A DNA stretch of 64,000 bases from Bacteroidales bacterium (GTDB lineage: Bacteria > Bacteroidota > Bacteroidia > Bacteroidales > P3), in NCBI GenBank assembly GCA_031260565.1, contig JAISLH010000015.1, forward strand, positions 452 to 64,451, given 5' to 3'. Shown piece by piece: positions 7,693 through 60,987 of the stretch. A model generated the notes under the pieces. That model worked only from the letters and a program-made list of their open reading frames with translations, searched no databases and was not told the DNA's origin. The translations under genes were made by a program, and so were the position numbers. The first letter of the stretch is position 1; each line of letters opens with the position of its first letter.

Positions 7693-7757
7693 TAATTTTC
7701 TAAAACAAAGCTTTAGAAAATTAAAACGCCGTTTCATTTTTACGAAACGGCGTTTTA
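7693..7757. repeat. Degenerate relative of the family-A element (two small hairpins)
   Basis: aattttctaaaacaaagctttagaaaatt plus aaaacgccgtttcatttttacgaaacggcgtttt share the aattttctaaa and aaacgcc/ggcgttt motifs with family A. Confidence 0.6.
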
Positions 7758-7819
7758 TTTCAACAAAACTTGACATCAATTTATTCAAGTAAAGTCTTTT
7801 TGTTCTAAAATGATATATG

Positions 7820-10403: not shown

Positions 10404-10497
10404 ATGCCACCTTAATTTTCTAAAGCGGCGTTTCGTGACGCTAAAGTGGCGTTTCAGCGTCACGAAACGCCGCTTTAGGAAAAGCAAGCAGAGTTTG
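10404..10497. repeat. Family-A palindromic element, copy 2 (perfect 23-bp stem)
   Basis: The left stem is ctaaagcggcgtttcgtgacgct (10420-10442), the loop is aaagtggcgtttc (10443-10455) and the right stem is the exact reverse complement (10456-10478). Confidence 0.95.
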
Positions 10498-10726
10498 GTT
10501 TTTACCAAAGGGCGAAAAAAGGGGAGGAAGCACCTATGCAAGTTTATGAAAAATTATAACATTTTATTTATGCAATATAAAATTTATATAAAACCATTTA
10601 TTATAATTTTATAATGTACAAATTTATAATTTATAATAGCCTTATAATTAGACGTTAATCAATTTTTAGGGGCTTATTTAATGTTAAAAAAAGTTTTTTA
10701 CATTTGAATATTTTATATAAAAGTAG

Positions 10727-13700: not shown

Positions 13701-14670
13701 TAGCCTCACAAACAACGGTATTGAAAAAACTCCCGAAAGTCCTAATGTAGATGGTCTCTGGTATGCCTTGTCCAACCCTTATAGCGGTAATTTGTATGCT
13801 GCCGACTGGCTTCATGCTAATACTAACGTACAGGGGAATGTTATCTACACATTTAATTCCGTTGATTCTACATGGAACGTTTTGGATGGAAGCGAAGGCA
13901 CACAACGTGTCAAAATAGGTGAAGGCTTCTTTGTCGCAGGTCAGGGAGGGACGAGTGCAAGGCAAAAGTCATTCAGCTTCAAACAAAATATGGCAACCAA
14001 TGTTCCAACTGCTAAGAGCAATGTTGATATTAGCAGGATAAAACTGACAGCAACATCAAACTATATGAGCAAAGAGGCTGTCATAAAGATAAACCAAGAC
14101 GCTTCTAACGGCTTTGATAATTACGATGCCTATATGAAGTTTGGCACAAGCAAGAGAGCAGTTGAACCTTACTTTATGATAGATAATCGTGCTGTTGTGA
14201 TGAACTCTATAAGCGACCTGCCATATTCCGCTGCCTTAAATATGTCTGCATTGCAGAACAACAACGTTGATTTGAAGTTTGAGAACATTCCAAGCAACGT
14301 AAGAGTTATTTTCATAGACCTTAGCTTTGGTTCAATAGACACGATAGCCGAAAAGGAAGTAGTAAATATTGATGTAGTTGAGGGACAAAACGACAACAGA
14401 TTTGTTATTCTGTTAGAAAAAGTATCTAATAACATAGACACTCCAGCAGCAGCAGACCTCAACATCTGGGCATACAACAACCGTTTAACAATCAACGGCG
14501 AAGCTCTCACAGGGCTTGAAGTTTATAACACACTTGGGCAGCTTGTCTTTTCAACCAAGATGTCCGGCAACAGTTATTCTCAGACCTTAGCCCTTAATGC
14601 AGGTTCTTATATTGCTAAGGCTACGGCTAAGAATGGCAACAAAACAATAAAATTTATAATCAATAAATAA
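10768..14670 (+). CDS. GLUG-motif repeat surface protein with a T9SS type-A C-terminal domain
   Basis: It has a signal peptide and many GGLIG/GGLVG (GLUG) repeats. The C-terminus LEVYNTLGQLVF...GSYIAKATAKNGNKTIKFIINK matches the Por-secretion tail pattern. Confidence 0.8.
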   Translation: MNTKIKLKTIIVSLLMLILAMSSNFLSAQSTGSITNLSGGNGSQANPYLISNAQDLVDLSNFVLAADDDIHNCVGMYFKVTTDIDMKSIANFVPIGGRSKKNNTDDDDVARVFRGKFDGNNKVIKNLKITSSTNSNGLFGVVVTASNTTEIKNITLDSCKIVMNGVAGGHIALFSGALIGTMEAMPSSGCVVRNCHVTNSTIQVGSNAECIGGLIGSILVGNTIEGSNPNIIVDSCSVKYFYTLSSTTAADLFGGLIGEASCGVDITNCNVDHCVIDHGAGSIGGLIGRAEGGSAASYARKISNCHTFYNLIRGSGACVGGMIGNATSNLNIEDCSSSYDSVMGKGRTGGLIGKADTNVSIKRCYNTYSYVQDASNFGAGGLIGGAEAATVTIEDSYSSLSIVVGLNYAGGLIGDFNGGANSIKNCYAANKVIASGTGGNLTAYRGGLSGKIPSSTAVQNSYYISTWTSQSLSGQNTNATRGVSKTPDQMRDIAFVGTLNAGRTSNAVWFQDTALYVNGGYPILKYGRGQVGSTYQIWNVEDLRALSAMVQNGIPTAGSNFLLMADIIFPANDNSFIPIGGWADENTNDDAKAFSGNFAGNRFYISGADINKPNNDYVGLFGLVDGGRIEEVAFLKSNIAGKDYAGGLVGKLDSKAVVNRCFATGDVRGENYVGGLIGYIDGAATVAACYAKCVVEGIDYVGGFAGSAEKVYNSYCVPNVLCLSDASTNVGAFCGHSSNATSLFSQCYYNSNWTTQGGLTSNAYGTPKTKADMVNKAAFVTLLNTGIDYPAWRLDDSPWTRNGGYPILGYEPFVTDLCIIEDWQTIKVNTKTDYDNRPSTIIIEDGGSLVNNYTSGDFDNVTVEHKLYNEQYSFIGSAFGNITFGQYLGEDGSKTYQNIYGNYPASCLLFNYNSNMWWGDPDGYTYAGYNTNMDVANGYFTYILDPTYGTPSFHPSSVGKMVKQSANAGKLFNKDITFSLTNNGIEKTPESPNVDGLWYALSNPYSGNLYAADWLHANTNVQGNVIYTFNSVDSTWNVLDGSEGTQRVKIGEGFFVAGQGGTSARQKSFSFKQNMATNVPTAKSNVDISRIKLTATSNYMSKEAVIKINQDASNGFDNYDAYMKFGTSKRAVEPYFMIDNRAVVMNSISDLPYSAALNMSALQNNNVDLKFENIPSNVRVIFIDLSFGSIDTIAEKEVVNIDVVEGQNDNRFVILLEKVSNNIDTPAAADLNIWAYNNRLTINGEALTGLEVYNTLGQLVFSTKMSGNSYSQTLALNAGSYIAKATAKNGNKTIKFIINK

Positions 14671-15254: not shown

Positions 15255-15485
15255 AATATTATAGTTTCCAAGTTAAACACTATAACTTTCGAGTTAAACA
15301 CTATAACTTTCGAGTTAAACACTATAACTTTCAAGCCAAACACTATAACTTTCAAGTTAAACACTGTAACTTTCAAGTTAAACACTATAACTTTCAAGCC
15401 AAACACTATAACTTTCAAGTTAAACACTATAACTTTCAAGTTAAACACTATAACTTTCAAGTTAAACACTATAACTTTCAAGCCA
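15255..15485. repeat. Tandem array, 21-bp unit AACACTATAACTTTCAAGTTA, 10 full units plus 1 degenerate leading unit
   Basis: Units start at 15276 and recur every 21 nt to 15485. Variants are gagtta, aagcca and ctgtaac. The leading unit 15255-15275 matches 16/21. Confidence 0.95.
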
Positions 15486-15524: not shown

Positions 15525-16199
15525 ATGCAAAGTGACTGGATTAAGTACAGAGAAGCAGATTTATTGCTGCAGGCAGGAGCTAATGAAAAGTATTTTATTT
15601 CGCTTGGTTCGCAATTTCCTTCAGCTGAGTTACAACGTTTTAGGGCAGCAGTAACAGCATTTAGGACGGCGTTCGCAAAAACATCAGACAAGGGCACATC
15701 AACGAGTGCTGATGTAAAAGCTAAAAATGATGCAAAAAAAGCGTTAATCGCTATAATGCGAGAGTTTTACAACAGGTATGTTATCGGCAGTCCGACAATG
15801 ACAAACGAGCAGCGGGAAACGTATGAATACCCTATCCACGACACCGAGCCAACACCTGTGCCTGTGCCAAGAATTGCTCCAGATATGGATGTTGATTTTT
15901 CGCAAAGAGGCTCTCATTTGGTGTATTTTGGCGAGGAGAATAGCAAACACAAAATCGTTCGCGGGCTGCCGAAAGGTGCTCATGGTGTGGAAATTTATCG
16001 CCTCATTTCGCACGACTCATTGCCAATTATGCCTGAAATTGAGACTATGGAATTTGTTGGGTTGGCTTCCAAAAGCCCGAAAGAATTCTTATACAAGAGC
16101 AGTGAAACCGGTTCCAGAGTGTATTATGTGGTGAGATATTTCAATGATAGAGGGGAGTTTAGCTTGTGGTCTAAGGTGGTGATGGCGATTGTGAATTAA
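15525..16199 (+). CDS. Hypothetical protein (224 aa) whose C-terminal half looks FN3/Ig-like
   Basis: The ORF is clean and non-repetitive. A Pro-rich hinge EPTPVPVPRIAP is followed by a beta-rich segment ending VYYVVRYFNDRGEFSLWSKVV, typical of FN3 C-terminal strands. Confidence 0.55.
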   Translation: MQSDWIKYREADLLLQAGANEKYFISLGSQFPSAELQRFRAAVTAFRTAFAKTSDKGTSTSADVKAKNDAKKALIAIMREFYNRYVIGSPTMTNEQRETYEYPIHDTEPTPVPVPRIAPDMDVDFSQRGSHLVYFGEENSKHKIVRGLPKGAHGVEIYRLISHDSLPIMPEIETMEFVGLASKSPKEFLYKSSETGSRVYYVVRYFNDRGEFSLWSKVVMAIVN

Positions 16200-17243
16200 A
16201 TGGGAAGTAGCAAAATTAAAAAAACAGCTAAAAAAAGGTCTATAACTTTTTCTCCTAGCTGGACAATTGAGCAAAATTTACTTTGGGGAATATTAGTATG
16301 TTTAGCATCTATTACAATCTCTATTTTTGTTATACCTATATTGGCAGTAGATTCACCAACTATACAGACTATAAAGAAAAGCCAAGACAGTATTATTGTT
16401 ACCTTGGACAATATTAAAACGAATACAACTGAAATTAAAGCACACGAAGACAGAATAGCTGCAAGTACCACTGCTGTTGATACTGCTTTTTCAAAGCCAT
16501 TGATAATACTTGGTGGAGGCTCTGTGAAAAATTATATAGAGAGAAATTATCAACCAATATTGAATCCCAAGCTATACTCAATACTTCCTGCTCCTAGTGA
16601 ATTTGCTTGTGTAAGGCTTAAAGATGAGGATTTTATTAAGCTTCAGACAGGTAATATTGTTATTATGAGTTCTGGCTACGAACTGCACGATGCTTTTTTT
16701 GAGAAACCCAGAGAAAACTATAAATTTGCTAATATCGTAGAGGTTTTTCTTGGATATGATACGCTTTACATCAAAACAAATGTTAAGTCAATAATTGATA
16801 AATACAAAGAGCGTAAAATAGATAAAAAAGACCTTTTGAAATTACTAAAAGATAGCAAAGACGTAGTTATAACCTGTACCGAAAAAGGCAGTGGAACATA
16901 TAACGAATATAACAAACTTGTAGGTGGCGAAATAGAAGAAAAAATAAATTTATCTAACCCATATTTTAAGGCTATAGAGACTAGCAAACCAACCATTGTT
17001 CTTACTCGTAGTAATTACGACCCAGCCAAAGATAATAGTGATTTTGTGAATATATATATAATAGACACTAATTATTTAACCTCTGGATTATATTTATATA
17101 TACCATTGAATGCAAATGAAAAAGATACGACGTTAATAATGCCTAGTATGATAAAGGGGCTTATAAGGCATTTTAAACCAAAATTCCCTTTGAAGATACC
17201 ACGTAATAGTGCAATTATAATTAAGGATACTAGTGGTAAGTAA
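16200..17243 (+). CDS. Membrane-anchored hypothetical protein (347 aa) with a weak PstS/PBP-type-2-like periplasmic-binding fold
   Basis: The start abuts the upstream stop (TAAATG). It has one TM segment (LLWGILVCLASITISIFVIPILAV) and a coiled-coil-like stretch. ILGGGSVKNY, IVIMSSGYELHD and KGSGTYNEY resemble PBP_like_2 motifs. Confidence 0.5.
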   Translation: MGSSKIKKTAKKRSITFSPSWTIEQNLLWGILVCLASITISIFVIPILAVDSPTIQTIKKSQDSIIVTLDNIKTNTTEIKAHEDRIAASTTAVDTAFSKPLIILGGGSVKNYIERNYQPILNPKLYSILPAPSEFACVRLKDEDFIKLQTGNIVIMSSGYELHDAFFEKPRENYKFANIVEVFLGYDTLYIKTNVKSIIDKYKERKIDKKDLLKLLKDSKDVVITCTEKGSGTYNEYNKLVGGEIEEKINLSNPYFKAIETSKPTIVLTRSNYDPAKDNSDFVNIYIIDTNYLTSGLYLYIPLNANEKDTTLIMPSMIKGLIRHFKPKFPLKIPRNSAIIIKDTSGK

Positions 17244-21438: not shown

Positions 21439-21858
21439 TTAGCTTTGTAATCCGTGAATATCAACATTCGCTTCTACAAGCGTAACATCGTTTTTAAGAA
21501 ATGCACTGAACTCAGATGAAGGACGGAAGGTGCAATGAATTTCATCCTCCCCATCTACGCTAACTTGGGCGAGAGTAGTTTTGTTAGCGGACTTAAGAAA
21601 CGGCACAAGCGTTCCCAAAGCTCCAATCTCAACGGAATATCCCGATGCAATCTTTTCTTTAATCACATCAGTCAGGGCAAAAACAGCCGCAGATACGTCT
21701 GCTCTTGTCAATCCTTCCCGCTCTGTTATTTCTTTCACAAGGACATCAAATGAGATTCTCCCTGCATTAAACCGTTGCTTGCGGTATCTTGTACCCGGAT
21801 TAGCACCTACCGTCTGATTTTTCATTACCTTTACGAAAGGAAATTCTAATTTTTTCAT
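21439..21858 (-). CDS. Bacteroidota-type HU-like DNA-binding protein
   Basis: It is 139 aa. LTRADVSAAVFALTDVIKEKIASGYSVEIGALGTL resembles HU/IHF-fold proteins of the Bacteroidales HU_2 type. Its stop lies 3 nt before the RNB ORF start. Confidence 0.65.
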   Translation of the reverse strand: MKKLEFPFVKVMKNQTVGANPGTRYRKQRFNAGRISFDVLVKEITEREGLTRADVSAAVFALTDVIKEKIASGYSVEIGALGTLVPFLKSANKTTLAQVSVDGEDEIHCTFRPSSEFSAFLKNDVTLVEANVDIHGLQS

Positions 21859-21958: not shown

Positions 21959-22060
21959 CTTGTTGAAAAAAAAGTGGCTACTTTTGCCCAAGAAGTAGCC
22001 ATTTTATTTAAAAAAAGTGGCTACTTTTTACCCAAAAGTAGCCACTTTTTTTTCAACAAG
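21959..22060. repeat. Nested palindrome with perfect 27-bp inverted arms and an internal oppositely oriented pair of the same core
   Basis: cttgttgaaaaaaaagtggctactttt (21959-21985) is the exact reverse complement of 22034-22060. Inner copies aagtagcca (21992-22000) and tggctactt (22018-22026) allow alternative pairings. Confidence 0.9.
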
Positions 22061-22708: not shown

Positions 22709-22795
22709 CGGAAAGGGAGGGATTCGAACCCTCGGTACCAATAAAGGTACAACGGTTTTCGAGACCGTCCTAATCGACCACTCTAGCACCTTTCC
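22709..22795 (-). tRNA. tRNA-Ser (anticodon CGA)
   Basis: The reverse complement GGAAAGGTGCTAGAGTGG...ACGGTCTCGAAAACCGT...long variable arm...GGTTCGAATCCCTCCCTTTCCG folds as a class II cloverleaf. The 7-bp acceptor pairs, and the anticodon loop is CT-CGA-AA. No CCA is encoded. Confidence 0.9.
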
Positions 22796-26837: not shown

Positions 26838-26915
26838 CAAACGCTGTTTTAATTTTCTAAAGTGGCGTTTCGTGACGCTAAAGCGGCGTTTCAGGAAAAT
26901 GAAACGCCACTTTAA
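26838..26915. repeat. Family-A palindromic element, copy 3 (box order swapped)
   Basis: In ttctaaagtggcgtttcgtgacgctaaagcggcgtttcaggaaaatgaaacgccactttaa, the T-type box occupies the outer positions and the C-type box the centre. Confidence 0.85.
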
Positions 26916-27052
26916 AAGAGTGGAATATTATAAGGTGTAATCAGTGTGTTAAAATAACCTGTTATCTCCCTGTTTTGTGTTGGATTTATTAACGTTTTCT
27001 TTCTGCTTTTTGGGGTCTGCGTTCATTTAACTTAGCGTTTTATTGAATTAAA

Positions 27053-32835: not shown

Positions 32836-32929
32836 ATGCCACTTCATTTTTCTAAAGCGGCGTTTCGTGACGCTGAAACGCCACTTTAGCGTCACGAAAC
32901 GCCGCTTTAGGAAAATGAGGCAGAGTTTC
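32836..32929. repeat. Family-A palindromic element, copy 4 (central box inverted)
   Basis: It has the same 23-bp stems as copies 2 and 6 (32852-32874 / 32888-32910). Its loop reads gaaacgccacttt, the reverse complement of the loop in copies 2 and 6. Confidence 0.95.
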
Positions 32930-33003
32930 ATTTCAATCAAGCAAAAAAAAGAAAAGGACAGATTTGCACCTGCCCTTTTCTAATTCAAGCCTTAACGGTT
33001 TAT

Positions 33004-36000
33004 TTATTTATTGACAATCAACTTTTGTGTTCTGTTGATGTCATTGTTCAGTATTCTAACGTAGTAAGTGCCTGCTGCATAATGCTCAACATCTATTGCC
33101 AATATCGTCTGGTTTGCTTTGATGTCAGTCTTTGCAATTACCTTGCCCGTAAGGTCGGTGATTGTAATCTGTGCATCGTCTCTCAAACCTGCTATTGACA
33201 AGGTTGCGGTATGCGTTGCAGGATTTGGATAGATGTTTATTGCTACTGCATCAATATCAACGTCAGACAGACCATTGCCATCACAAGTAGTAAATTGCTT
33301 CTCTACTCCATAATAAGCAACACTTCCAACCTTAGCATAAGCTACGTAGAAGTAGTTATCGCCATAATTGAAGCCAGTAGCAGTTGCCGTCATAGTCGTT
33401 CCAACAACAGGCATATTTGACGCAGCAATCGTTCCGTTATCAACCGTTAAGCCGGCAGTAGTACCATAAATGAAGCCAAATTCTGTTGCCATTGGTGTGC
33501 CTACGTTGGTTATCGTTCCTGCGAAATAAACTACAACGTCACTAACGCAAGTTACCGTAGCCGTATCAGTTACAACAACAGGATTCATGCCCTGCATTAG
33601 GAAGGTTAATTCACTACCATAAGTTGTGCCGCTGGCTGTTGTGGCATAAGCTTTGAAAGTATAGCTTGTGTTCGGTGTTAAAGCGGTAAGGTTAGCGGTT
33701 ATATCCGTTGTACCTGTGGCTGCTATAGTTTGCCATGAAGATGCGGTGCTTACTTTATATTCAAAACCTCTTGCTGTTATGGTTTCTGTCCCTGCGGCTG
33801 TTGTGCCGTTGAGTGTGGCTGTCGTATTAGTTATCTCTGTTGCGGCAAGAGTTGTTACCGTTGGAGGTGTATGCTGTAAAGTTGTAAAGGTTTGCTCACT
33901 GCCGTAAGTTGTACCGCTGGCTGTGGTAGCAGAAGCTCTGAAAGTATAGCTTGTGTTCGGTGTTAGAGCAGTAAGGTTGGCGGTTATAGTTGTTGTACCT
34001 GTAGCGGTAATAGTTTGCCATGAAGAAGCAGTGCTTACTTTATATTGAAAGCCTCTTGCTGTTATGGTTTCTGTCCCTGCGGCTGTTGTGCCGTTGAGTG
34101 TGGCTGTCGTATTAGTTATTGATGTTGCTGCAAGAGTTGTTACCGTTGGAGGGGTATGCTGCAAAGTTGTAAAGGTTTGCTCGCTGCCGTAAGTTGCACC
34201 GCTGGCTGTTGTGGCAGAAGCTCTAAAAGTATAGCTTGTGTTTGGTGTTAAAGAAGTAAGAGCGGCGGTTATATTCGTCGTGCCTGTGGCGGTAATAGTT
34301 TGCCATGAAGATGCGGTGCTTACTTTGTATTGAAAGCCTCTTGCTGTTATGGTTTGCGTGCCTGCGGTTGTTGTACCGTTGAGGGTAGCTGTCGTATTAG
34401 TTATTGCTGTTGTGGCAAGGGTTGTTACCGTTGGAGGGGTATGCGTTGTGCTAAAGGTTAATTCGCTGCCGTAAGTTGTGCCGCTGGCTGTTGTGGCAGA
34501 AGCTCTAAAAGTATAGCTTGTGTTCGGTGTTAAAGCAGTAAGGTTAGCGGTTATTGTCGTTGTGCCTGTGGCGGTAATAGTTTGCCATGAAGATGCGGTG
34601 CTTACTTTGTATTGAAAGCCTCTTGCTGTTATGGTTTGTGTGCCTGCGGCTGTTGTGCCGTTGAGTGTGGCTGTTGTATTAGTTATTGTTGAGGCGGCAA
34701 GAGTTGTTATTACTGGAGGTGTATGTTGCGTGGTAAAGGTTAATTCGCTGCCATAAGTTGTTCCGCTGGCTGTGGTAGCAGAAGCTCTGAAAGTATAGCT
34801 TGTGTTCGGGGTTAAAGCAGTAAGGTTAGCGGTTATTGTCGTTGTGCCTGTGGCTGCTATAGTTTGCCATGAAGAGGCGGTGCTTACTTTGTATTGAAAA
34901 CCTCTTGCTGTTATGGTTTGTGTGCCTGCGGTTGTTGTACCGTTGAGTGTGGCTGTTGTTTGGGTTATTGATGTCGCTGCAAGGGTTGTTACCGTTGGAG
35001 GGGTAATGAATTGTGTGATGGCTATATCATCTAAATACATATTGTAGCCATACTGAGAAAGTGCCTTAAAGACTATGTATTTTGTACCACTTAAAGCTGA
35101 AGGTATGGTATATGAAATGGAATCCCAACCTGCTGTTCCCATATTTGAAACGAAGCCTAACAATGTTCCGCCAACCGTATCAGGTGTTGAATTAACATAA
35201 ACATAAACTCCTTCGTTAGCGGATGAATAACTTCCTGTATATTTGTAAAACCAGAAAGACAGAAGCATATTTCCAGATAAGCTTATTTGAGGAGAAGCCA
35301 TTGTTGTCCATGCTCCTACTTGATTCTGGCTGTCATAGCTTGCATATTTAGCCATATTACTACCACCGTGAGGGGCACAAGTAGGAGTGACTCCCGTTGT
35401 TACTATTTGCCAATAAGTATTTGCAGCTGCTCCTGACGAAGCTAATGTCCAGCAACCAAAACCATTTTCAAAGCCCTCTGTATATGGAAAAATTGTTACC
35501 GAAGAGCAAAGAGTTGTAAAGGATTGCTCTTCTCCATAATAAGTGCTTCCAGCTACCGTTGCATAGGCTCTGAAAGTATAAGTGGTACTTGGTGTTAGAG
35601 CAGTGAGGTTAGCAGTTATGGTTGTTGTTCCTGTGGCTGCAATAGTTTGCCATGAAGATGCAGTGCTTGCTTTGTATTGAAAACCTCTTGCCGTTATTGT
35701 TTGGGTTGAAGAAATAGCTCCGTTAAGTGTTGCTGTGTTTGCGGTAACAGATGTTGCGGCATAAGTTACAACAGCAGTAGTTCCCAATGCACTTTGGATA
35801 CCAGCAAGGGCGTTAATTTTACCATAACCCCATGTGTTATTAGGAACAGAAGAGGTATAGCTATCGGTTATTGATGTTGTTTGTAATATTGTTTTGACTT
35901 GTGAAGGAGTTAATGAAGGATTTGCCTGCAACCACAAAGCTATAACCCCTGCAACAAAAGGGCTTGACATAGATGTTCCCGAAGCAGTACCATAGTACCA

Positions 36001-37695
36001 TGTTGTGCCGCTAAATGATTGCGAAGCAACAACACTACTGCTTGACGGGTTACTGCTTGATGAAAACCTATTGAAGGAAGAAACCAAAGTATGTCCCGGT
36101 CCTGCAATATCAGGTTTTGTTCTGCCGTCAGCCGAAGGTCCTTTACTTGAAAAGTATGCAATATCACTTACCGTGCCGCTATATCCATAGTTACTTCCAC
36201 CCAAAGATGTATAACTTAATTTCGTTGCATACGCTCCTACAGCAATAGAATTATTGCCTGTCGCCAAACAATTTATTGTTTGATTGGTTGAACCTGTGGT
36301 GAAAGTAGAATTAAAGGCAGTTGTGCGGAAGGTAACATCACCTGACCACATACTCGTCGTTGTTCCGCTCGCAGCAGAACTTCTTACTCTTATGACAACA
36401 TAGTAATTAGAGTTCGTATTACTATAATTAACAGAGACCATAGCGTTAGGCTTATTGTTATTAGGGTCTGCCGACTCAGCCCAAATCGTTACACCACAAC
36501 TTGAACCGCTATAAGATATAGTATTGTTATAATAACCACTTGAACTTGTTTGAGTAAAAGGAGTAGTGGCAACATAAGCTCCTGTTGAAGCATTGTATAT
36601 TGCTACAGCAACAGAAAATTGATTGTTTGGTGTGCCCCAAACATAATTATAAGCACTCCCGCTGACAAAATCATAAGCAACGTTCATAGTATCTACTCCG
36701 GTCTGTGTCTTGGTTGCAAACAAAGGGTCGCTACCTTCGTTGCCTGCTGATATACAAGGAATAACGCCTGCTGTTGCCATTTGGTCGCAGTATTGTTCAA
36801 AGGAAGAAGTACCATCATTAGGTCCTCTGTTAGAGCCAAGACTCATATTGATAACACAGGGTTTTCCCACAGAAGCAGCATAACTCTTGATGTATGATAT
36901 TCCGTCTGCTATTCCGGTGGTAGTCATATTTGTTGCCACAAAGACCAAATCGCTGTTTGGAGCAACGCCTCTGTATGTTGCACTTGTCGCTCCACCAGAA
37001 CCACCTGCAATTCCTGCAACGTGAGAGCCATGTGTGCTTGTCGTATTGTCTCTCTGAGCCGCTAAAATGGTAGTTTGCGTTGTTAGCTCTCTGCCATAGT
37101 TAAAGCCTGAGGGATTAGTGCCGCTCGTTGATTGCTCCCATACTCGTTTTACTCTATAAACAGAGTGCGTAGTGTCATAAAAAGTGGGGTGGGTGTAGTC
37201 AAAGCCGTTGTCAATGATACCTACAACAACGCCGTCTCCCTTATAAGCCTGCGATAAACCATTTGTTCCTGCCTGAACTTGATTAACGTTGGAGGCTGTG
37301 CGTGCTGCATCTAAATCCAATTTGACCTTCTCACCTATTTCTATTCTTACAACGCCGTCTATCTTAGCCACATTTTCAATTTGAGAAACAGGGATTAAAG
37401 CCGTAGCAAGATTGCCCTCGTGAGGGTTCATTTTACCGCCAAGCAATGCAAATTCCCGCTCATTGAAATTCTCATTGACACGAATAAAACAACTTGCATA
37501 AACGACATTGTCAATACTCACCAAGCCATAAGAATTTATAAAACTCGTGTCTTCAACGGAAAGCGTCTTACCCTGCTTTTCCACTTTACTTAAATTATGC
37601 AACATTGCCCTCGTTGGAGGAGACAACGTTTGCTGTCCAAAACTCATGGTAGCAAAACCTAATGCTAACCACAAAAAGATAAATATTCGCTTCAT
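33004..37695 (-). CDS. S8 (subtilisin-family) peptidase with multiple FN3-like repeats and a T9SS type-A CTD
   Basis: The catalytic triad context is VGIIDNGFD, THGSHVAGIAGG and ASGTSMSSPFVAG. The C-terminus is NIYPNPATHTATLSI...GTYYVRILNNDINRTQKLIVNK. Confidence 0.85.
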   Translation of the reverse strand: MKRIFIFLWLALGFATMSFGQQTLSPPTRAMLHNLSKVEKQGKTLSVEDTSFINSYGLVSIDNVVYASCFIRVNENFNEREFALLGGKMNPHEGNLATALIPVSQIENVAKIDGVVRIEIGEKVKLDLDAARTASNVNQVQAGTNGLSQAYKGDGVVVGIIDNGFDYTHPTFYDTTHSVYRVKRVWEQSTSGTNPSGFNYGRELTTQTTILAAQRDNTTSTHGSHVAGIAGGSGGATSATYRGVAPNSDLVFVATNMTTTGIADGISYIKSYAASVGKPCVINMSLGSNRGPNDGTSSFEQYCDQMATAGVIPCISAGNEGSDPLFATKTQTGVDTMNVAYDFVSGSAYNYVWGTPNNQFSVAVAIYNASTGAYVATTPFTQTSSSGYYNNTISYSGSSCGVTIWAESADPNNNKPNAMVSVNYSNTNSNYYVVIRVRSSAASGTTTSMWSGDVTFRTTAFNSTFTTGSTNQTINCLATGNNSIAVGAYATKLSYTSLGGSNYGYSGTVSDIAYFSSKGPSADGRTKPDIAGPGHTLVSSFNRFSSSSNPSSSSVVASQSFSGTTWYYGTASGTSMSSPFVAGVIALWLQANPSLTPSQVKTILQTTSITDSYTSSVPNNTWGYGKINALAGIQSALGTTAVVTYAATSVTANTATLNGAISSTQTITARGFQYKASTASSWQTIAATGTTTITANLTALTPSTTYTFRAYATVAGSTYYGEEQSFTTLCSSVTIFPYTEGFENGFGCWTLASSGAAANTYWQIVTTGVTPTCAPHGGSNMAKYASYDSQNQVGAWTTMASPQISLSGNMLLSFWFYKYTGSYSSANEGVYVYVNSTPDTVGGTLLGFVSNMGTAGWDSISYTIPSALSGTKYIVFKALSQYGYNMYLDDIAITQFITPPTVTTLAATSITQTTATLNGTTTAGTQTITARGFQYKVSTASSWQTIAATGTTTITANLTALTPNTSYTFRASATTASGTTYGSELTFTTQHTPPVITTLAASTITNTTATLNGTTAAGTQTITARGFQYKVSTASSWQTITATGTTTITANLTALTPNTSYTFRASATTASGTTYGSELTFSTTHTPPTVTTLATTAITNTTATLNGTTTAGTQTITARGFQYKVSTASSWQTITATGTTNITAALTSLTPNTSYTFRASATTASGATYGSEQTFTTLQHTPPTVTTLAATSITNTTATLNGTTAAGTETITARGFQYKVSTASSWQTITATGTTTITANLTALTPNTSYTFRASATTASGTTYGSEQTFTTLQHTPPTVTTLAATEITNTTATLNGTTAAGTETITARGFEYKVSTASSWQTIAATGTTDITANLTALTPNTSYTFKAYATTASGTTYGSELTFLMQGMNPVVVTDTATVTCVSDVVVYFAGTITNVGTPMATEFGFIYGTTAGLTVDNGTIAASNMPVVGTTMTATATGFNYGDNYFYVAYAKVGSVAYYGVEKQFTTCDGNGLSDVDIDAVAINIYPNPATHTATLSIAGLRDDAQITITDLTGKVIAKTDIKANQTILAIDVEHYAAGTYYVRILNNDINRTQKLIVNK
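33587..35008. repeat. Five near-identical tandem repeats of about 280 bp (about 93 aa) inside the S8 peptidase gene, plus one diverged copy near 35520-35790
   Basis: Each repeated peptide reads TPPTVTTLAATSITNTTATLNGTTAAGT(Q/E)TITARGFQYKVSTASSWQTI(T/A)ATGTTTITANLTALTPNTSYTFRASATTASGTTYGSE(L/Q)TF, with long identical DNA runs. Coordinates are approximate. Confidence 0.85.
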
Positions 37696-39279: not shown

Positions 39280-39670
39280 CCGAACGCCAAATTAGCAAAA
39301 TCCTCTCCCAAAACGCTATTCTACTTTCTCCAAACGCCACTTTAACTTACTCAAACGCTGTTTTAATTTAGCGAAACAGTGTTTTATTTTAGCGAAACGC
39401 TGCTTTATTTTCGTTAGATGTACATCTAAAATAAATAAGATGTACATCAAAATAAAATAAGATGTACATCAAAATAAAATAAGACGTACATCAAAATAAA
39501 ATAAGACGTACATCAAAATAAAATAAGATGTACATCTAATGAAAATAAGATGTACATCAAATAAATTTTAAGTGGCGTTTCAACAAAATAAAACACTGTT
39601 TCGCTAAATTAAAACAGCGATTGAGTAAGTTAAAGTGGCGTTTGGTTATGTTAAAGTGGTGTTTGTGGAA
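39280..39670. repeat. Composite palindromic element B1: 61-bp inverted arms plus 7 x 22-bp phased GA[T/C]GTACATC array
   Basis: Arms 39330-39390 and 39585-39645 are reverse complements at 60/61. Palindrome copies start at 39417, 39439, 39461, 39483, 39505, 39527 and 39549. Extra degenerate boxes lie outside the arms. Confidence 0.95.
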
Positions 39671-39891
39671 AATAGAATGATATTTGGCAGCAACCAAATG
39701 AAGATTTAATTGATTAAGGCTTGAATGCGTTTTAATGAAATCAAATTATTGGTTATCAGTGTATATAGTTGCAGTATTGATACAAAGTTTTCACCCGTCT
39801 AAATAATATTTTATGGCGGCGAAGTAAAATTTTTTGATAAAAAATGCTTTATTTCAAATTTTTATATTATTTTTGCAGGTTAATTAGATAT

Positions 39892-43849: not shown

Positions 43850-44191
43850 TTACTTAATTTCTTTTATCATCTGTTCTATTTCTCTTTTCAAAACAGGCAA
43901 ATGTCGCACTACAACACCCCAAATAATCCCATCGTCAATTTTATCATAGCCGTGAATGACCCTATTTCTCATTCCTATAATTTGCTTCTTCGCTGAAATG
44001 TTTATGTTGGGAGCATTTTTTTCCAATCTGTTCATTGCTTCTCCTATGATTTCGAACTCTCTTTCAACGGCTCGCCGCAACATTTGATTAGACATATAAA
44101 CATTGAAATCAAGATTTTCTCCCAAGTAGTTTTCTATTGAGAGTATGGATTGTTGAATGTCGTACAGATACTTTTTAATCTCTATTTCCAT
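43850..44191 (-). CDS. hepT: HepT (DUF86) toxin of a type VII HepT/MNT toxin-antitoxin pair
   Basis: It has the Rx4HxY motif RNRVIHGY, is 113 aa, and overlaps the upstream nucleotidyltransferase gene by 17 nt. Confidence 0.8.
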   Translation of the reverse strand: MEIEIKKYLYDIQQSILSIENYLGENLDFNVYMSNQMLRRAVEREFEIIGEAMNRLEKNAPNINISAKKQIIGMRNRVIHGYDKIDDGIIWGVVVRHLPVLKREIEQMIKEIK

Positions 44192-44486
44192 ACAACAAAA
44201 CTTTTGACTGGTTAATAGACTGAATGAAATAAGGGTTTTTTAAAGAGTTTTCAGTTACCAAATCAACAGGTCGCTCAAAAATCTCTTCTAATTGTTCTGC
44301 CGTTTCAAAATAATTATCAGCATAATCGGCATAATCCATAGCCTTAAATGACACCAACAAATCCACATCACTTTGAGCATTGAACTTATTAGTCAATGAT
44401 GACCCAAAGACATACATAGCATCAACAAAATGGCTATCACAAACCTGCTTTATGCGTTCTAAATTTGAAGTAATAAGACTATTCAT
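44175..44486 (-). CDS. mntA: MNT-type minimal nucleotidyltransferase antitoxin
   Basis: It has YVFGSSLTNKFNAQSDVDLLV (GSx10DxD). I chose the start at Met35 because a -7 box (44513-44520) lies inside the longer track ORF. Confidence 0.75.
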   Translation of the reverse strand: MNSLITSNLERIKQVCDSHFVDAMYVFGSSLTNKFNAQSDVDLLVSFKAMDYADYADNYFETAEQLEEIFERPVDLVTENSLKNPYFIQSINQSKVLLYGNRD

Positions 44487-44512
44487 AGCAAAATCCCTTT
44501 TAATTACACCTG

Positions 44513-44520
44513 CAAAAGTA
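44513..44520 (-). promoter_or_regulatory. -7 promoter box (TACTTTTG)
   Basis: TAnnTTTG lies 27 nt upstream of the ATG at 44486. Confidence 0.45.
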
Positions 44521-44802
44521 GGAAAATTATTTTTAATAACTGCGGTTTTTGCACTTTCATTCAAAAAATATTTTTCAAGGATTGCCACATTCTTTCAAAT
44601 ATGTTATGTGTCTTTCTGTATTCCTGCTTTTTTATCCAATAATCTTCACGCAATTTTCTACTTTCTTTTATTACTTTAGGTTGAGGACAACTTAAGGAGT
44701 CTTTTTGCCGTATTTAATGATAGCAAAGGTACATCTTTTTTTTTGAAACAACAAAATAAATCATCATTTTGCCCTCCTCTACCCACATTCTAATTTAGCA
44801 TT

Positions 44803-51370: not shown

Positions 51371-51465
51371 GTGCCACCTTAATTTTCTAAAGCGGCGTTT
51401 CGTGACGCTAAAGTGGCGTTTCAGCGTCACGAAACGCCGCTTTAGGAAAATGAAGCAGAGCTTGA
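51371..51465. repeat. Family-A palindromic element, copy 6 (perfect 23-bp stem)
   Basis: The stems are 51387-51409 and 51423-51445 and the loop is aaagtggcgtttc (51410-51422). The core is identical to copy 2. Confidence 0.95.
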
Positions 51466-51770
51466 TTTTGGCAAAAGAGCATAAGTTTCTATTCGTTGTT
51501 TAGTTTGAGAATGTAAAAGTACAAAAAATAAAATTAAAATGAGGTATCTCTGTTATCATACACAAATTGCTTAAATTTATAGTAAATTTTGTTAATTCGA
51601 GTTTTGATAGGATATATCTGAGTTTGGAGGCTAAATTATCAACATTTAATTTCTGTAAAATGAAAAAAAGTTATTGTTTATCAATAAAAAATTTGGTAGT
51701 CTCAAAAATAAGTTGTTACTTTGCAAACTCAAATTTAGAGTATTTTTTATAATTAAAACAAGAATTAGAA

Positions 51771-54152: not shown

Positions 54153-54887
54153 ATGAAAAAATTAGTCTTATTTATAGCCTCTGTAGCCTTTGGATTAGGC
54201 ATACAGGCTCAGTCGTTCCGCCTTACAACTCCAGAGGGAACAGAAATAGGGAGTGAAGTAACCTTTCTCCTTCGTCCGTCCGACCAAGGGTTTAAGCAGG
54301 AGTATATTTATATGGAAAACCTCACCCAAGAGCCTATTGCAGTCCGTATGCAGATAGAAAAATTAGATATGTCAGAGGGTTCAGACATAGTTATGTGCTT
54401 TGCGGGCAACTGCCTTCTTGACACTATAGCACCGGTAACAAACATTGCAACCATTGAGGCAGGAGAGCGATATGAAGAGTTTGACTTGCAATATACTTAT
54501 TCAGATATGCGAACTCCTTCAACGGTGAAAGTGAATTTGCTAAACCCTGCAGACTTGACAATAATACAGAGTTTCATTATTCATTATTCTGATACGGAGA
54601 GCGGCTTGGGAGAGATTACTGAAAACAGACAGGCTTCGGTTAATATCTATCCAAACCCTGTAACGACTACGACTTGCATTAAATATATCATGCCAAAAGA
54701 CTGTCAATCTCCGTCAATCATCGTGAAGAATATGTTGGGCAAAGAAGTTAAGAATGTAAAGATTAGCGGTAGCCAAAGCGGCAAAGTCTATATCAATACA
54801 GAAGACTTGTCGCAGGGGCTTTACTTCTGTTCAATCGTATGCGACAATCAAACCATTGCGACTAAGAAAATAGTCGTAAAACACTAA
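54153..54887 (+). CDS. Small T9SS type-A CTD-containing secreted protein
   Basis: It has a signal peptide. The C-terminus is VNIYPNPVTTTTCIKY...GLYFCSIVCDNQTIATKKIVVKH. Confidence 0.7.
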   Translation: MKKLVLFIASVAFGLGIQAQSFRLTTPEGTEIGSEVTFLLRPSDQGFKQEYIYMENLTQEPIAVRMQIEKLDMSEGSDIVMCFAGNCLLDTIAPVTNIATIEAGERYEEFDLQYTYSDMRTPSTVKVNLLNPADLTIIQSFIIHYSDTESGLGEITENRQASVNIYPNPVTTTTCIKYIMPKDCQSPSIIVKNMLGKEVKNVKISGSQSGKVYINTEDLSQGLYFCSIVCDNQTIATKKIVVKH

Positions 54888-57511: not shown

Positions 57512-57538
57512 TAAAACTACAAAACTTTCTTTCAAAAG

Positions 57539-57846
57539 AACGAAGCAGTGTTTTAATTCACTCAAGCAGTGTTTTAAATCACTCAAACAGCGTTTTAAAT
57601 TACGGAAGCAGTGTTTAAACTTCTTGAAACAGCGTTTGAGATTCATAAGATGTACATCTTTTTTTCATAAGATGTACATCTTATTTTCGTTTGATGTACA
57701 TCTTATTTTATTTTGATGTACATCTTATTAAATTTAGATGTACATCTTATTAAGTTTTGATATATACCAAACTAAAATAAAACACTGCTTCCGTAAATTT
57801 AAACACTGTTTCAGTAACTTAAAACACTGCTTCGTTAAGTTAAAAC
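57539..57846. repeat. Composite palindromic element B2: imperfect inverted arms of AAGCAGTGTTTTAA-type boxes plus 5 x 22-bp phased GATGTACATC array
   Basis: Palindrome copies start at 57649, 57671, 57693, 57715 and 57737. The first 18 nt of the left arm (aacgaagcagtgttttaa) are the exact reverse complement of 57819-57836. The left arm carries one extra box. Confidence 0.95.
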
Positions 57847-58013
57847 AAAGTAAGAGCGAAATGTAATCAAGTTTGGGAGCGACAAAACAAAATAAGAGCA
57901 AATTAAAACCTTACTTTATTTTAGCCAAAGGAAGAATGAAGGGAATAATATGGGCTGTTATCCCCGTAAAACCGCATATTGCGTTGTTGGAATATGGTTA
58001 CGCAAAATTTTAT

Positions 58014-58021
58014 TACCTTTG
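58014..58021 (+). promoter_or_regulatory. -7 promoter box (TACCTTTG)
   Basis: TAnnTTTG lies 23 nt upstream of the ATG at 58044. Confidence 0.5.
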
Positions 58022-59448: not shown

Positions 59449-60231
59449 ATGGAGCTATCAACGATATACAATGAGAATTGCTTGGAAACAATGAAGCGTA
59501 TGCCTGATTGCTTTCTTGATTTTGTTATTACATCTCCCCCTTACGATGATATTCGCAATTATAACGGCTTTACTTTTGAGTTTGAAGATATTGCGAGGCA
59601 GCTGTTCAGGGTTATGAAAGAGGGGGCTGTTATGATATGGGTTGTTGCAGATGCTACAATAAATGGTTGCGAAAGCGGGACATCATTCAAGCAGGCGTTG
59701 AAGTTTATTGAGATAGGCTTTCGGTTGCACGACACTATGATTTATTATAAAAACAACCCTATGCCACAAACAGGCAATCGCTATCATCAGCACTTTGAAT
59801 ATATGTTTTGTCTTTCCAAAGGCTCGCCTAAAACATTTAATCCAATAACTGAAAAGACCAAATACAACGGTTTGGCTAATATGAAAAACAGAGGTAAGAG
59901 AGGGGAGTTGCTTTATGAAAAGATAGAGCGAACAAGTGAAAAGAAGGTAGGTAATGTCTTTTGTTATTCCGTTGGTGGGGGCATTTCAACAAAGGACAAG
60001 ATAGCTTACAATCACCCTGCAATATTTCCCGAAAATTTAGTTAAAGACCAGATTAAGAGTTGGACTAATGAGGCGGACTTGGTTTATGACCCCTTTATGG
60101 GAAGTGGCACAACGGCAAAGGTAGCTCAGCTTATGAACAGACGTTGGATAGGCTCTGAAATATCAACGCAATATGTTGAAATTGCAGAGCAAAGAATAGC
60201 TCAGTATGTATTAGATGACTTATTTGTTTAG
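59449..60231 (+). CDS. Beta-class amino DNA methyltransferase (SPPY type, probably N4-cytosine or N6-adenine)
   Basis: It has motif IV ITSPPYDDIRNY at the N-terminus and motif I DPFMGSGTTAKVA at the C-terminus, at 260 aa. Confidence 0.85.
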   Translation: MELSTIYNENCLETMKRMPDCFLDFVITSPPYDDIRNYNGFTFEFEDIARQLFRVMKEGAVMIWVVADATINGCESGTSFKQALKFIEIGFRLHDTMIYYKNNPMPQTGNRYHQHFEYMFCLSKGSPKTFNPITEKTKYNGLANMKNRGKRGELLYEKIERTSEKKVGNVFCYSVGGGISTKDKIAYNHPAIFPENLVKDQIKSWTNEADLVYDPFMGSGTTAKVAQLMNRRWIGSEISTQYVEIAEQRIAQYVLDDLFV

Positions 60232-60234
60232 ATT

Positions 60235-60987
60235 ATGGATTTAGTTCAAAGAGGCTCTCAAACGGCAAAAGATGGTTTTCGTAACGAAGATGATATTGTT
60301 ATAAAGTTTAATAATTGGCAAAAAGACAACGAAGCTAAACTTTGGTTAGAGTATATGGGCTATAAGCTGGAGGATATTGAATATGTTAAGGTGATAAAGG
60401 TTGCAAAAGCTAAAACAGATGTTCAAGTTCAAATAACGATTAAATTAAAGAAAATAATAGATGCACAAAACATTCAGGTAAAACTTGTGAGCAACAACTC
60501 TGGCTTTAATCAAATAGATAAACGTTGGGTTGATAATTATGTTGAATTATGGAATATACCAAATGATGTTTCATCGTTATTAAAGCAATACACTGGGGAA
60601 ACAAAGCCAACGTTTAACACAAAAGACAAGAGGAGAGCTTTCGCAAATGAGTTTAACGACCAAGAGCAAATGAAGCTAATCAAATGGATAAAGAACAATC
60701 AATCACTAATAGTATCTGATATATTAAAAGGCAGAGGGCAGTTAGCTGCGGAATGGATGCTGGTCGTTCAAAAAGCTAACTCTACAACCAAATGGATACT
60801 GAACTCAATGAACTATTGCCTAAACTTCTTTGGCAATGGTGATGTTGTCATAACAGGGAGAGGGAGCATTAGAATAGGACAAATTACCATGCAACGCAAA
60901 GGTGGTGATGGAGGAAGAGATACGGCAAATATGTTACAATTCAAAATCAATCCTGCGTTGTTGTTTAAAAATGAAATAACAAAATAA
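60235..60987 (+). CDS. Type II restriction endonuclease, HinP1I/MspI-like by motif
   Basis: It starts 3 nt after the methyltransferase stop and is 250 aa. A PD-(D/E)xK variant has E18, D62 and Q81-V-K83 (KTDVQVQI...NIQVKLVSN). Confidence 0.6.
   Translation: MDLVQRGSQTAKDGFRNEDDIVIKFNNWQKDNEAKLWLEYMGYKLEDIEYVKVIKVAKAKTDVQVQITIKLKKIIDAQNIQVKLVSNNSGFNQIDKRWVDNYVELWNIPNDVSSLLKQYTGETKPTFNTKDKRRAFANEFNDQEQMKLIKWIKNNQSLIVSDILKGRGQLAAEWMLVVQKANSTTKWILNSMNYCLNFFGNGDVVITGRGSIRIGQITMQRKGGDGGRDTANMLQFKINPALLFKNEITK

Follow-up and report, generated by a model that had tools for sequence, protein, structure and literature searches.

Phased palindrome arrays linked to HU-HIG genes, and the mosaic intergenic repeat that carries them in a Bacteroidales genome

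In Escherichia coli, BIME-1 (bacterial interspersed mosaic elements, also known as RIB or RIP) consists of two inverted REPs (repetitive extragenic palindromes) around a linker with an IHF site and is dispersed at the 3′ ends of transcription units, as described in PMC3333891 (citing Boccard & Prentki 1993). Among Bacteroidales, the BrickBuilt MITEs (miniature inverted-repeat transposable elements) of Porphyromonas gingivalis are multi-copy and intergenic, with inverted ends and a spacer-less 22-23-nt minisatellite of variable copy number; BrickBuilt_14, which has no leader or tail, is situated just upstream of the HU-type gene PGN_0872, and the family has been reported from P. gingivalis and P. 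gulae only (PMC4596501). Here we describe B2, a ~330-bp intergenic element in a 64,000-nt stretch of a Bacteroidales metagenome-assembled genome (MAG; GCA_031260565.1, contig JAISLH010000015.1), a stretch that we call the window. The centre of B2, an array of the palindrome GATGTACATC, stands between two inverted arms of 21-bp boxes; a second element, B1, lies in the same window. We say with good confidence that the centre belongs to a conserved class of arrays linked to the genes of HU-HIG proteins.

The closest functional analogue is BIME-1, as an analogue and not as a family to which B1 and B2 belong. Like BIME-1, they are dispersed intergenic mosaics, often at gene 3′ ends, with inverted arms and modules that recombine, the arm module occurring also alone; the centre is likewise tied to a protein of the HU/IHF superfamily, which is bound in BIME-1 and genomically linked here. 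Unlike BIME-1, they come from another phylum and have no sequence relation to enterobacterial REPs; their centres have 5-7 phased palindromes in place of the one asymmetric IHF site of that account, their arms are 21-bp tandem arrays and not single 35-nt REP hairpins, and the candidate binder's own gene carries the same array. An open reading frame (ORF) similar to RAYT (TnpA_REP) was not noticed in the window, no dedicated search for one having been made. BrickBuilt is the closest precedent within Bacteroidales, being also multi-copy and intergenic with inverted ends; unlike BrickBuilt, arrays of GATGTACATC span the phylum. We rejected BrickBuilt as a homologue, its unit AGACCATAGTATCCTCTCATATG being unrelated and not palindromic.

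In the ParR/parC systems of R1 and pSK41 and at plasmid iterons (22-bp spacing) small dimeric proteins bind centromere-like or operator arrays cooperatively, and an array of the ParR/parC type has two roles, that of an operator and that of a platform on which a wrapped nucleoprotein complex is assembled. The arrays described below are similar to these in having 4-10 short sites, at about two helical turns, beside the gene of a binder, here a candidate one. They are different in being chromosomal and multi-copy with no partition ATPase or rep gene; the candidate protein has an HU fold rather than a ribbon-helix-helix or Rep fold, and there was no plasmid or phage match. In particular, a BLAST search with B2 against plasmid and phage collections returned no match, and a scan of viral contigs with the exact pattern found no array. 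With housekeeping chromosomal neighbours, many copies and no plasmid, phage or viral match, a plasmid-type iteron origin was rejected. The literature searched (on the motif, on Bacteroides repeats of 22 bp, on autoregulation and repeats in the HU family) contained no earlier account of these arrays; the relevant publications were those on BrickBuilt and on HU-HIG.

Distribution of the array and its linkage to HU-HIG genes

A preliminary description of B2 had proposed that genomes be searched for two palindromes separated by 12 nt. We scanned one genome per GTDB species with the pattern GATGTACATC-N12-GATGTACATC, which by itself fixes the period at 22 bp, and obtained at least 89 loci with the palindrome kept, almost all of them in Bacteroidota and nearly all of these in Bacteroidales. 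The statements on these loci that follow hold among the matches listed. Outside Bacteroidota there were three or four two-copy chance matches (Brenneria, Geotalea, an actinomycete). The carriers are Phocaeicola coprophilus (loci L015, L038 and L058), Prevotella, uncultured Bacteroides, Flavobacterium, Cytophagales and Ancylomarina, as well as multi-copy Bacteroidales MAGs, with >20 arrays in STF2_138 and several in each of Go_Prim_bin_146, AS08sgBPME_458 and SO_2017_CLC_2. Most arrays have 4-6 units at exactly 22 bp; the palindrome is invariant across genomes, while the 12-bp spacer and the flanks differ completely. Palindrome and phasing are conserved phylum-wide.

The proteins encoded at the flanks of the 89 loci were compared all against all by BLAST. 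They formed many small clusters of orthologues from related MAGs, and one cluster alone crossed unrelated genomes: ten proteins of ~126-158 aa with 20-85% mutual identity, identified as HU-HIG (PF18291, E = 1e-19 to 6e-24). A search of ORFs and six-frame fragments in the 89 loci with a hidden Markov model made a single addition, the truncated start of an HU-HIG gene directly after the array L038 in P. coprophilus. Thus, an HU-HIG gene adjoins the array in 11 of the 89 loci, each in a different genome, and the mutual identity of these proteins is only 20-40%. The distance from the end of the array to a downstream HU-HIG ATG is 43-171 bp in eight loci. HU-HIG made up 11 of the ~180 ORFs adjacent to an array versus none of the ~320 other ORFs in ~636 kb (Fisher p = 1e-5). 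The other 78 loci are dispersed copies away from HU-HIG genes, as are B1 and B2; reading of their neighbours in the window revealed no HU-HIG gene adjoining either. The search for a DNA-binding protein whose gene co-occurs with the motif, recommended in the preliminary description, thus ended with HU-HIG.

Outside the window, the best match to the centre of B2 was the array L050, situated 129 bp upstream of an HU-HIG gene. Homologues of the protein encoded at L050 were used to approach the same linkage with no DNA motif in the query: contigs were fetched by exact protein identity or, from JGI metagenomes, by an N-terminal peptide pattern, resulting in 46 contigs with a total length of 155 kb (L090-L104, L106-L134, L137 and L138). 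In about 40 of the 46 contigs, nearly all of those with sufficient upstream sequence, there is exactly one phased array, with 3-5 GAT[GA]TA[CT]ATC (GATRTAYATC) sites, 45-90 bp before the ATG; no further array of these sites was found elsewhere in the 155 kb. The period in most of these loci is 23 bp. Tandem Repeats Finder (TRF), which is agnostic of the motif, reported tandem repeats with a period of 22-24 bp for 22 of the 27 distinct regions upstream of these genes, and four of the five negative regions have phased palindromes with dissimilar spacers. Members of the MAIKYRV.TKPDNIG sub-clade of HU-HIG (the GACTTAAGTC sub-clade; L093/L106, L107 and L108) have GACTTAWGTC palindromes instead; the palindrome changes together with the HU-HIG sub-clade, an instance of cis/trans co-variation. 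Both samples show that the array is physically linked to HU-HIG genes.

In several clades a −7 box, TAnnTTTG, is found ~20-25 nt downstream of the last palindrome, and in Bacteroides and Phocaeicola such a box is found directly upstream of the array; depending on the clade, the array thus borders on the −33 region or takes up the beginning of the transcript, for ~100 bases. In either place a bulky complex could act as a repressor.

Phased upstream arrays extend to other HU-HIG subfamilies. The HU-HIG gene of the window (21439-21858, minus strand; MDR0789322.1) has four phased (~21.5 bp) 14-bp near-palindromes, AAAGTRGCYACTTT, at 21967-22053, ~110 bp upstream of its ATG, and the gene of a 53% identical paralogue in the same MAG, MDR0789569.1 (L136), has a 21-bp tandem repeat, GGGACTAAATAAAATTATTAC, ~70 bp before its ATG. 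We considered whether the arm boxes of B1 and B2 could be sites of the window's HU-HIG paralogue; the 8-mer GCCACTTT on which this would rest is shared with some arm boxes, perhaps by chance, and is too weak for a claim.

The ends of Logan contigs of SRR14710919 (L105, L135, L136; the source organism) coincide exactly with B1 and with the arrays upstream of HU-HIG genes. As short-read contigs end at these places, the arrays evidently break metagenome assemblies.

Anatomy, conservation and genomic position of B2 and B1

The palindromes of B2 start at 57649, 57671, 57693, 57715 and 57737, the step being exactly 22 bp, and all five starts are those of the preliminary description. A degenerate sixth unit, GATATATACC, follows in phase at 57759-57768. 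The centre as a whole occupies 57648-57768, with the five exact copies of GATGTACATC at 57649-57746, and was reported by TRF as 57648-57751 with period 22 and 4.7 copies. The exact palindrome occurs ten times in the window versus 0.03 expected from dinucleotide shuffles; all ten occurrences are inside B1 or B2.

The left arm of B2 (57522-57647, plus strand) was delineated from a printout of the 21-nt register and from TRF; it has five 21-bp boxes at 57543-57647 with the consensus AAGCAGTGTTTTAAnTnAcnn and a degenerate sixth box at 57522-57542, and a weight-matrix scan placed five phased boxes at 57543-57642. The right arm (57769-57852, minus strand) has four inverted 21-bp boxes, at 57789-57769, 57810-57790, 57831-57811 and 57852-57832, with the outermost one degenerate; the additional box that had been ascribed to the left arm is thus borne out as five boxes against four. 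In the arms TRF reported period 21 at 57543-57616 and 57773-57847. In the 21-nt register, the arm boxes of B1 and B2 have a core AAAC/AAGC-N3-GTTT and on both sides are read towards the centre. Comparison of the left flank of B2 with the reverse complement of the right flank gave a local score of 84, versus 27 in direct comparison. The outer 18-nt inverted repeat, AACGAAGCAGTGTTTTAA at 57539-57556 (plus strand), has its partner at 57819-57836 (minus strand); direct reading of the sequence agreed with the earlier statement that the two are exact reverse complements.

B1 has the same composition. Its left arm (39311-39415, plus strand; register and weight-matrix scan) consists of five 21-bp boxes (AAACGCYRYTTTAnnTTnnnn) and its right arm (39565-39664, minus strand) of five inverted 21-bp boxes, with a local score of 122 in inverted comparison versus 20 in direct. 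The exact palindromes of B1 are within 39417-39558. Five units had been described for this array; with the relaxed pattern GAYRTAYRTC we found seven in perfect 22-bp register, five GATGTACATC and two GACGTACATC, which form a centre at 39416-39565. The units of B2 (57705-57727) and B1 are reverse complements of each other, as had been stated, and alignment of the plus strand of B1 with the minus strand of B2 spans the whole ~350 bp, box for box. This makes the two elements old copies of a single composite element that have since diverged, and not independent constructions: B1 is a diverged full-length copy of the B2 element in opposite orientation. The copies are 58-66% identical over the arms and 83% identical over the centre, with agreement at 55 of 60 positions (92%) in palindromes and at 55 of 72 (76%) in spacers; the centre is better kept than the arms.

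At least six sets of orthologous copies, from MAGs with flanking proteins 75-97% identical, keep the element at the same place. Between orthologous copies the number of units shifts by whole units (4 vs 5, 5 vs 6), and the arms gain or lose boxes in steps of 21 bp. Per position, mismatches amount to 0.6% for palindromes and 16% for spacers. The choice of loci with two exact palindromes inflates this contrast, which extends to each of the four to five units; the protein-derived sample is free of that bias and agrees. These comparisons show purifying selection on the palindrome. The preliminary description had argued for selection on the array from its presence at two independent loci. The selection part of this argument stands, with palindrome and phasing kept while arms and spacers drift, both between B1 and B2 and between orthologues; the independence does not, the two loci being copies of one element.

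In 23 distinct arrays of the protein-derived sample positions 4 and 7 of the palindrome were A/T in 34 units, G/C in 21, G/T in 15 and A/C in 21. The two positions vary almost independently, and the non-complementary combination A/C accounts for 21 of 91 units. Since non-complementary units are common, the data fit two GATRT half-sites read independently by a dimer and not selection for pairing.

The arm module exists also without a central array. With a weight matrix made from the boxes of B1 and B2, we detected arm-only copies at 1760-1880, 10410-10500, 26840-26920, 32850-32930 and 51380-51470 of the window; these five are nearly identical ~110-bp perfect palindromes with the core CTAAAGCGGCGTTTCGTGACGCT...AGCGTCACGAAACGCCGCTTTAG. 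A single hairpin of the arm core is situated at 7723-7769, and four of these six copies are at gene 3′ ends. The arm-only repeats look like a young REP/REPIN- or MITE-like family of the source MAG; as arm boxes exist alone, the arms are probably the propagating (REP/MITE-like) part of the composite element or else a platform for a second factor. Conversely, many arrays have no arms, e.g. L050 and L096.

Other phased modules are joined to the array as well. In uncultured Bacteroides sp. B7_L3 (L014, 2709-3030; L067, 7265-7600) units of GATGTACATC grade into 6-9 (T)CCGTACGG(A) units, with spacer and 22-bp register unchanged, via intermediates such as GCCGTACATC; this looks like divergence in situ of one site array into another specificity. 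In Prevotella an array of GATGTACATC is joined in the same 22-bp register to four copies of ACTGGGCGGTgaacgatcagtc, and in multi-copy MAGs the flanks have 20-22-bp periodicity in 55-70% of cases. Given these in-register joins, the elements are mosaics of phased modules. Among related observations, at L077 (2770-2930; STF2_138) an arm-type box array, AAACGCCGTTTTAATTTCTTG, is found beside a 21-22-bp tandem module, AAAAAGGTGGGACATAAATTT, with three copies, far from any array of GATGTACATC, which adds to the evidence for mosaics of modules. At 15269-15482 of the window there are ten near-perfect 21-bp tandem units, CAAGTTAAACACTATAACTTT, which contain the inverted repeat AAGTTA-N7-TAACTT; this array ends 35 bp before the ATG of ORF 15525-16199 (224 aa, with no Pfam or NCBIfam match), and an orphan ORF, 16200-17243, is next.

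All arrays listed are intergenic; where a few were called inside a gene, the gene is a spurious long ORF of GC-rich DNA. Both neighbours were called in 69 loci, and here the flanking genes are convergent in 19, tandem in 42 and divergent in 8; this distribution of orientations is the opposite of a promoter bias. The gene before B2 codes for a flavin reductase, and the element starts 11-32 bp past its stop codon; the gene after B2 codes for a small membrane protein, with its TAccTTTG box ~160 bp beyond the end of the element. B1 is between divergent cysS and an OmpA-family gene. A TAnnTTTG promoter ~270-310 bp downstream had been assigned to both elements. The boxes at 58014-58021 (B2) and 39868-39875 (B1) do have this distance, counted beyond the last palindrome; it is not a property of the family, as the orientations given above indicate. 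With no family-wide promoter bias, a shared operator for the two downstream operons is not favoured. No local regulator gene adjoins B1 or B2, the neighbours being housekeeping genes.

As to other genes of the window, a type II restriction-modification pair, an N4/N6 DNA methylase (PF01555) followed by an endonuclease of the R.HinP1I family (PF11463), is at 59449-60987, 1.6 kb downstream of B2. A module similar to type VII toxin-antitoxin systems, a pair of HepT-like RNase and MNT nucleotidyltransferase, is at 43850-44588 (minus strand). ORF 33004-37695 (minus strand) codes for a 1563-aa subtilase/fibronectin-III protein with a C-terminal sorting domain of the type IX secretion system (T9SS) and contains five 285-bp tandem repeats (33602-35005); there are several further T9SS cargo genes, including 10768-14670 and 54153-54887.

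Possible function and alternative explanations

The HU-HIG proteins of the array-linked clade are ~126-130 aa long, with a basic beta-hairpin at the N-terminus; they are basic (isoelectric point ~9-9.7), their first 30 residues especially so. An HU-HIG profile search matches HU/IHF structures (E = 4e-12); a phmmer search with one HU-HIG protein against PDB sequences produced no match. In an AlphaFold model (mean predicted local distance difference test score, pLDDT, of 78) an HU body is preceded by a beta-hairpin; the solved structures closest in fold are those of HU and IHF and, for HU-HIG, 4FMR.

We lean towards an explanation in which B2 and B1 are a BIME-1-like dispersed mosaic repeat, with a centre predicted to be a docking platform for an array of HU-HIG dimers and not a switch of the neighbouring operons; HU-HIG is probably the protein that binds the array. 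In the central module, each 10-bp palindrome would be two abutting GATRT half-sites, repeated at two helical turns, and an HU-HIG homodimer would read each palindrome. With 22-bp phasing, neighbouring dimers would come to lie on almost the same side of the helix, and 5-7 DNA-bending dimers that bind cooperatively could fold and compact the segment as a nucleoprotein complex. Such a complex would result in autoregulation at the HU-HIG gene itself; at dispersed copies, such as B1 and B2, the role may be architectural, that of a boundary or roadblock, a nucleoid anchor or a titration site, with no dedicated operator. The second module, the inverted arrays of 21-bp arm boxes, is probably the REP/MITE-like part that propagates, or a platform for a second factor. 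One could speculate further that HU-HIG paralogues are sequence-specific array binders, each with a private short palindrome phased at two helical turns before its own gene, and that some Bacteroidales lineages have distributed mosaics of such arrays, as centre plus arms or as several modules in a common register, to dozens of intergenic regions; these would be programmable chromatin-like landmarks acting as domain boundaries, roadblocks or decoys in conflicts with mobile DNA. This extension we regard as doubtful.

Several observations weigh against such a role of HU-HIG. The arrays L034 and L044 are 22-61 bp past the HU-HIG stop codon and not upstream of the gene; L137 has no array, its gene being 60 bp behind another ORF, and L094/L095 are ambiguous, with an insertion sequence upstream. 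The sole HU-HIG gene of the window (21439-21858) is of another subfamily and 17.5 kb from B1, and among ten homologues of the array-linked HU-HIG clade that were looked up none had an accession of the source MAG. The ascertainment requirement of two exact palindromes inflates the conservation figures for palindrome and spacer. In the protein, the stretch aligned to the beta-arm of HU is acidic and not Arg/Pro-rich. HU-HIG proteins only 20-27% identical share an identical palindrome, while a sub-clade ~60% identical has a different one; divergent proteins with the same site and similar proteins with different sites are odd for simple co-evolution and leave room for another conserved factor. The literature searched contained no binding experiment for the array, and the only in-depth analysis of HU-HIG (Burroughs et al. 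2017, PMC5499826) predicted that the proteins have no sequence specificity and argued that a role as sequence-specific transcription factors is improbable.

Such another factor, for instance a regulator of the Crp/Fnr type or a helix-turn-helix dimer for which HU-HIG would be merely a regulated neighbour, is suggested by TTGATGTACATCAA, which makes an ideal FNR box: the unit of some clades, TTTGATGTACATCAAA, equals the FNR consensus TTGAT-N4-ATCAA, and the literature uses the same sequence as an FNR site. Identical sites beside very divergent HU-HIG proteins and the acidic arm region point in the same direction. Still, the flanking T/A of the FNR box is not kept in most genomes (ctaaGATGTACATCt, gaaaGATGTACATCtgg), while the four central bases GTAC, not read by FNR, are conserved; HU-HIG is the sole constantly linked gene, others (AraC-type in one clade) varying by locus, the palindrome changes with the HU-HIG sub-clade, and 4-7 strictly phased sites between convergent genes would be unusual for a classical regulator. 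Thus, we consider another regulator as not very probable. It is unlikely, too, that the whole element is a selfish MITE, with inverted arms and an internal minisatellite as in BrickBuilt and palindromes that have no host function. Such an origin would explain the dispersed intergenic copies (two composite and five arm-only in 64 kb, >20 in STF2_138), the inverted arms with the exact 18-nt inverted repeat, the differences in unit number between orthologues and the same overall build as BrickBuilt (PMC4596501). It would leave unexplained why palindrome and phasing are conserved across orders and classes independently of the arms, and why the palindrome is conserved far better than spacers or arms; copies are kept at orthologous positions in MAGs with flanking proteins 75-97% identical, no target-site duplication is seen at the limits of B1 (39312/39664) or B2 (~57522/57852), where the ends fade into degenerate boxes, and there is no transposase among the annotated ORFs of the window. 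With regard to presence or absence, all of 4-5 related MAGs keep the element at orthologous sites, in loci that had been selected for presence of the array. The arms may well be MITE- or REP-like, and to this extent a MITE origin is already a part of the explanation that we prefer, the mosaic with a docking platform.

Could the element act as a single strand, as a terminator, an mRNA stabilizer, a 5′-untranslated-region element or a cruciform, with 10-bp hairpins formed by the palindromes and a long stem by the arms? The predicted folding of B2 is strong (−70 kcal/mol and z = −10.6 as single-stranded DNA; z = −8.9 for the centre as RNA), many copies are at gene 3′ ends, B2 itself 11-32 bp past a stop codon, and with the −7 box of Bacteroides and Phocaeicola just upstream the array would be transcribed. 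However, such z-scores arise from any array of palindromes, and positions 4 and 7 do not co-vary, 23% of units having the non-pairing A/C. There is no T-run signature of a terminator, copies are present in divergent promoter regions in either orientation, and strict 22-23-bp phasing of ~4-6 units indicates double-stranded DNA geometry; an Rfam search over the whole window matched only a tRNA (22709-22795) and nothing at the array. A single-stranded role is therefore improbable. Quite improbable, too, is the proposal that B1 and B2 are a shared upstream operator co-regulating the OmpA-family operon and the operon of the small membrane protein and CoA-transferase. The common distance of ~270-310 bp to a plus-strand TAnnTTTG box would agree with it, as would the array being very probably a protein-binding site, by prediction; this distance is long for a promoter, though, the orientation counts have no promoter bias, the flanking gene families are unrelated apart from HU-HIG, and the neighbours in the window are unrelated housekeeping genes.

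A CRISPR array was rejected, the 12-nt spacers being largely common to the units and to B1 and B2 and cas genes being absent among the annotated ORFs. Readings as LytTR-type sites or Tn7 ends were also dropped, given the lack of the associated genes and the multi-copy chromosomal distribution.

Bacteroidales thus possess BIME-like mosaic intergenic repeats made of phased arrays of predicted protein sites, and these arrays bear on nucleoid organization, on breaks in metagenome assemblies and on intergenic annotation in gut Bacteroidales. Within the HU/IHF fold, HU-HIG forms a large expansion specific to Bacteroidota, to which no function has been assigned; the array (GATRT.AYATC at 22-23-bp phasing) is a candidate recognition site for these proteins. 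The data give a candidate autoregulatory architecture for these proteins together with genomic target sites, including sites in the cultivable gut species Phocaeicola coprophilus.

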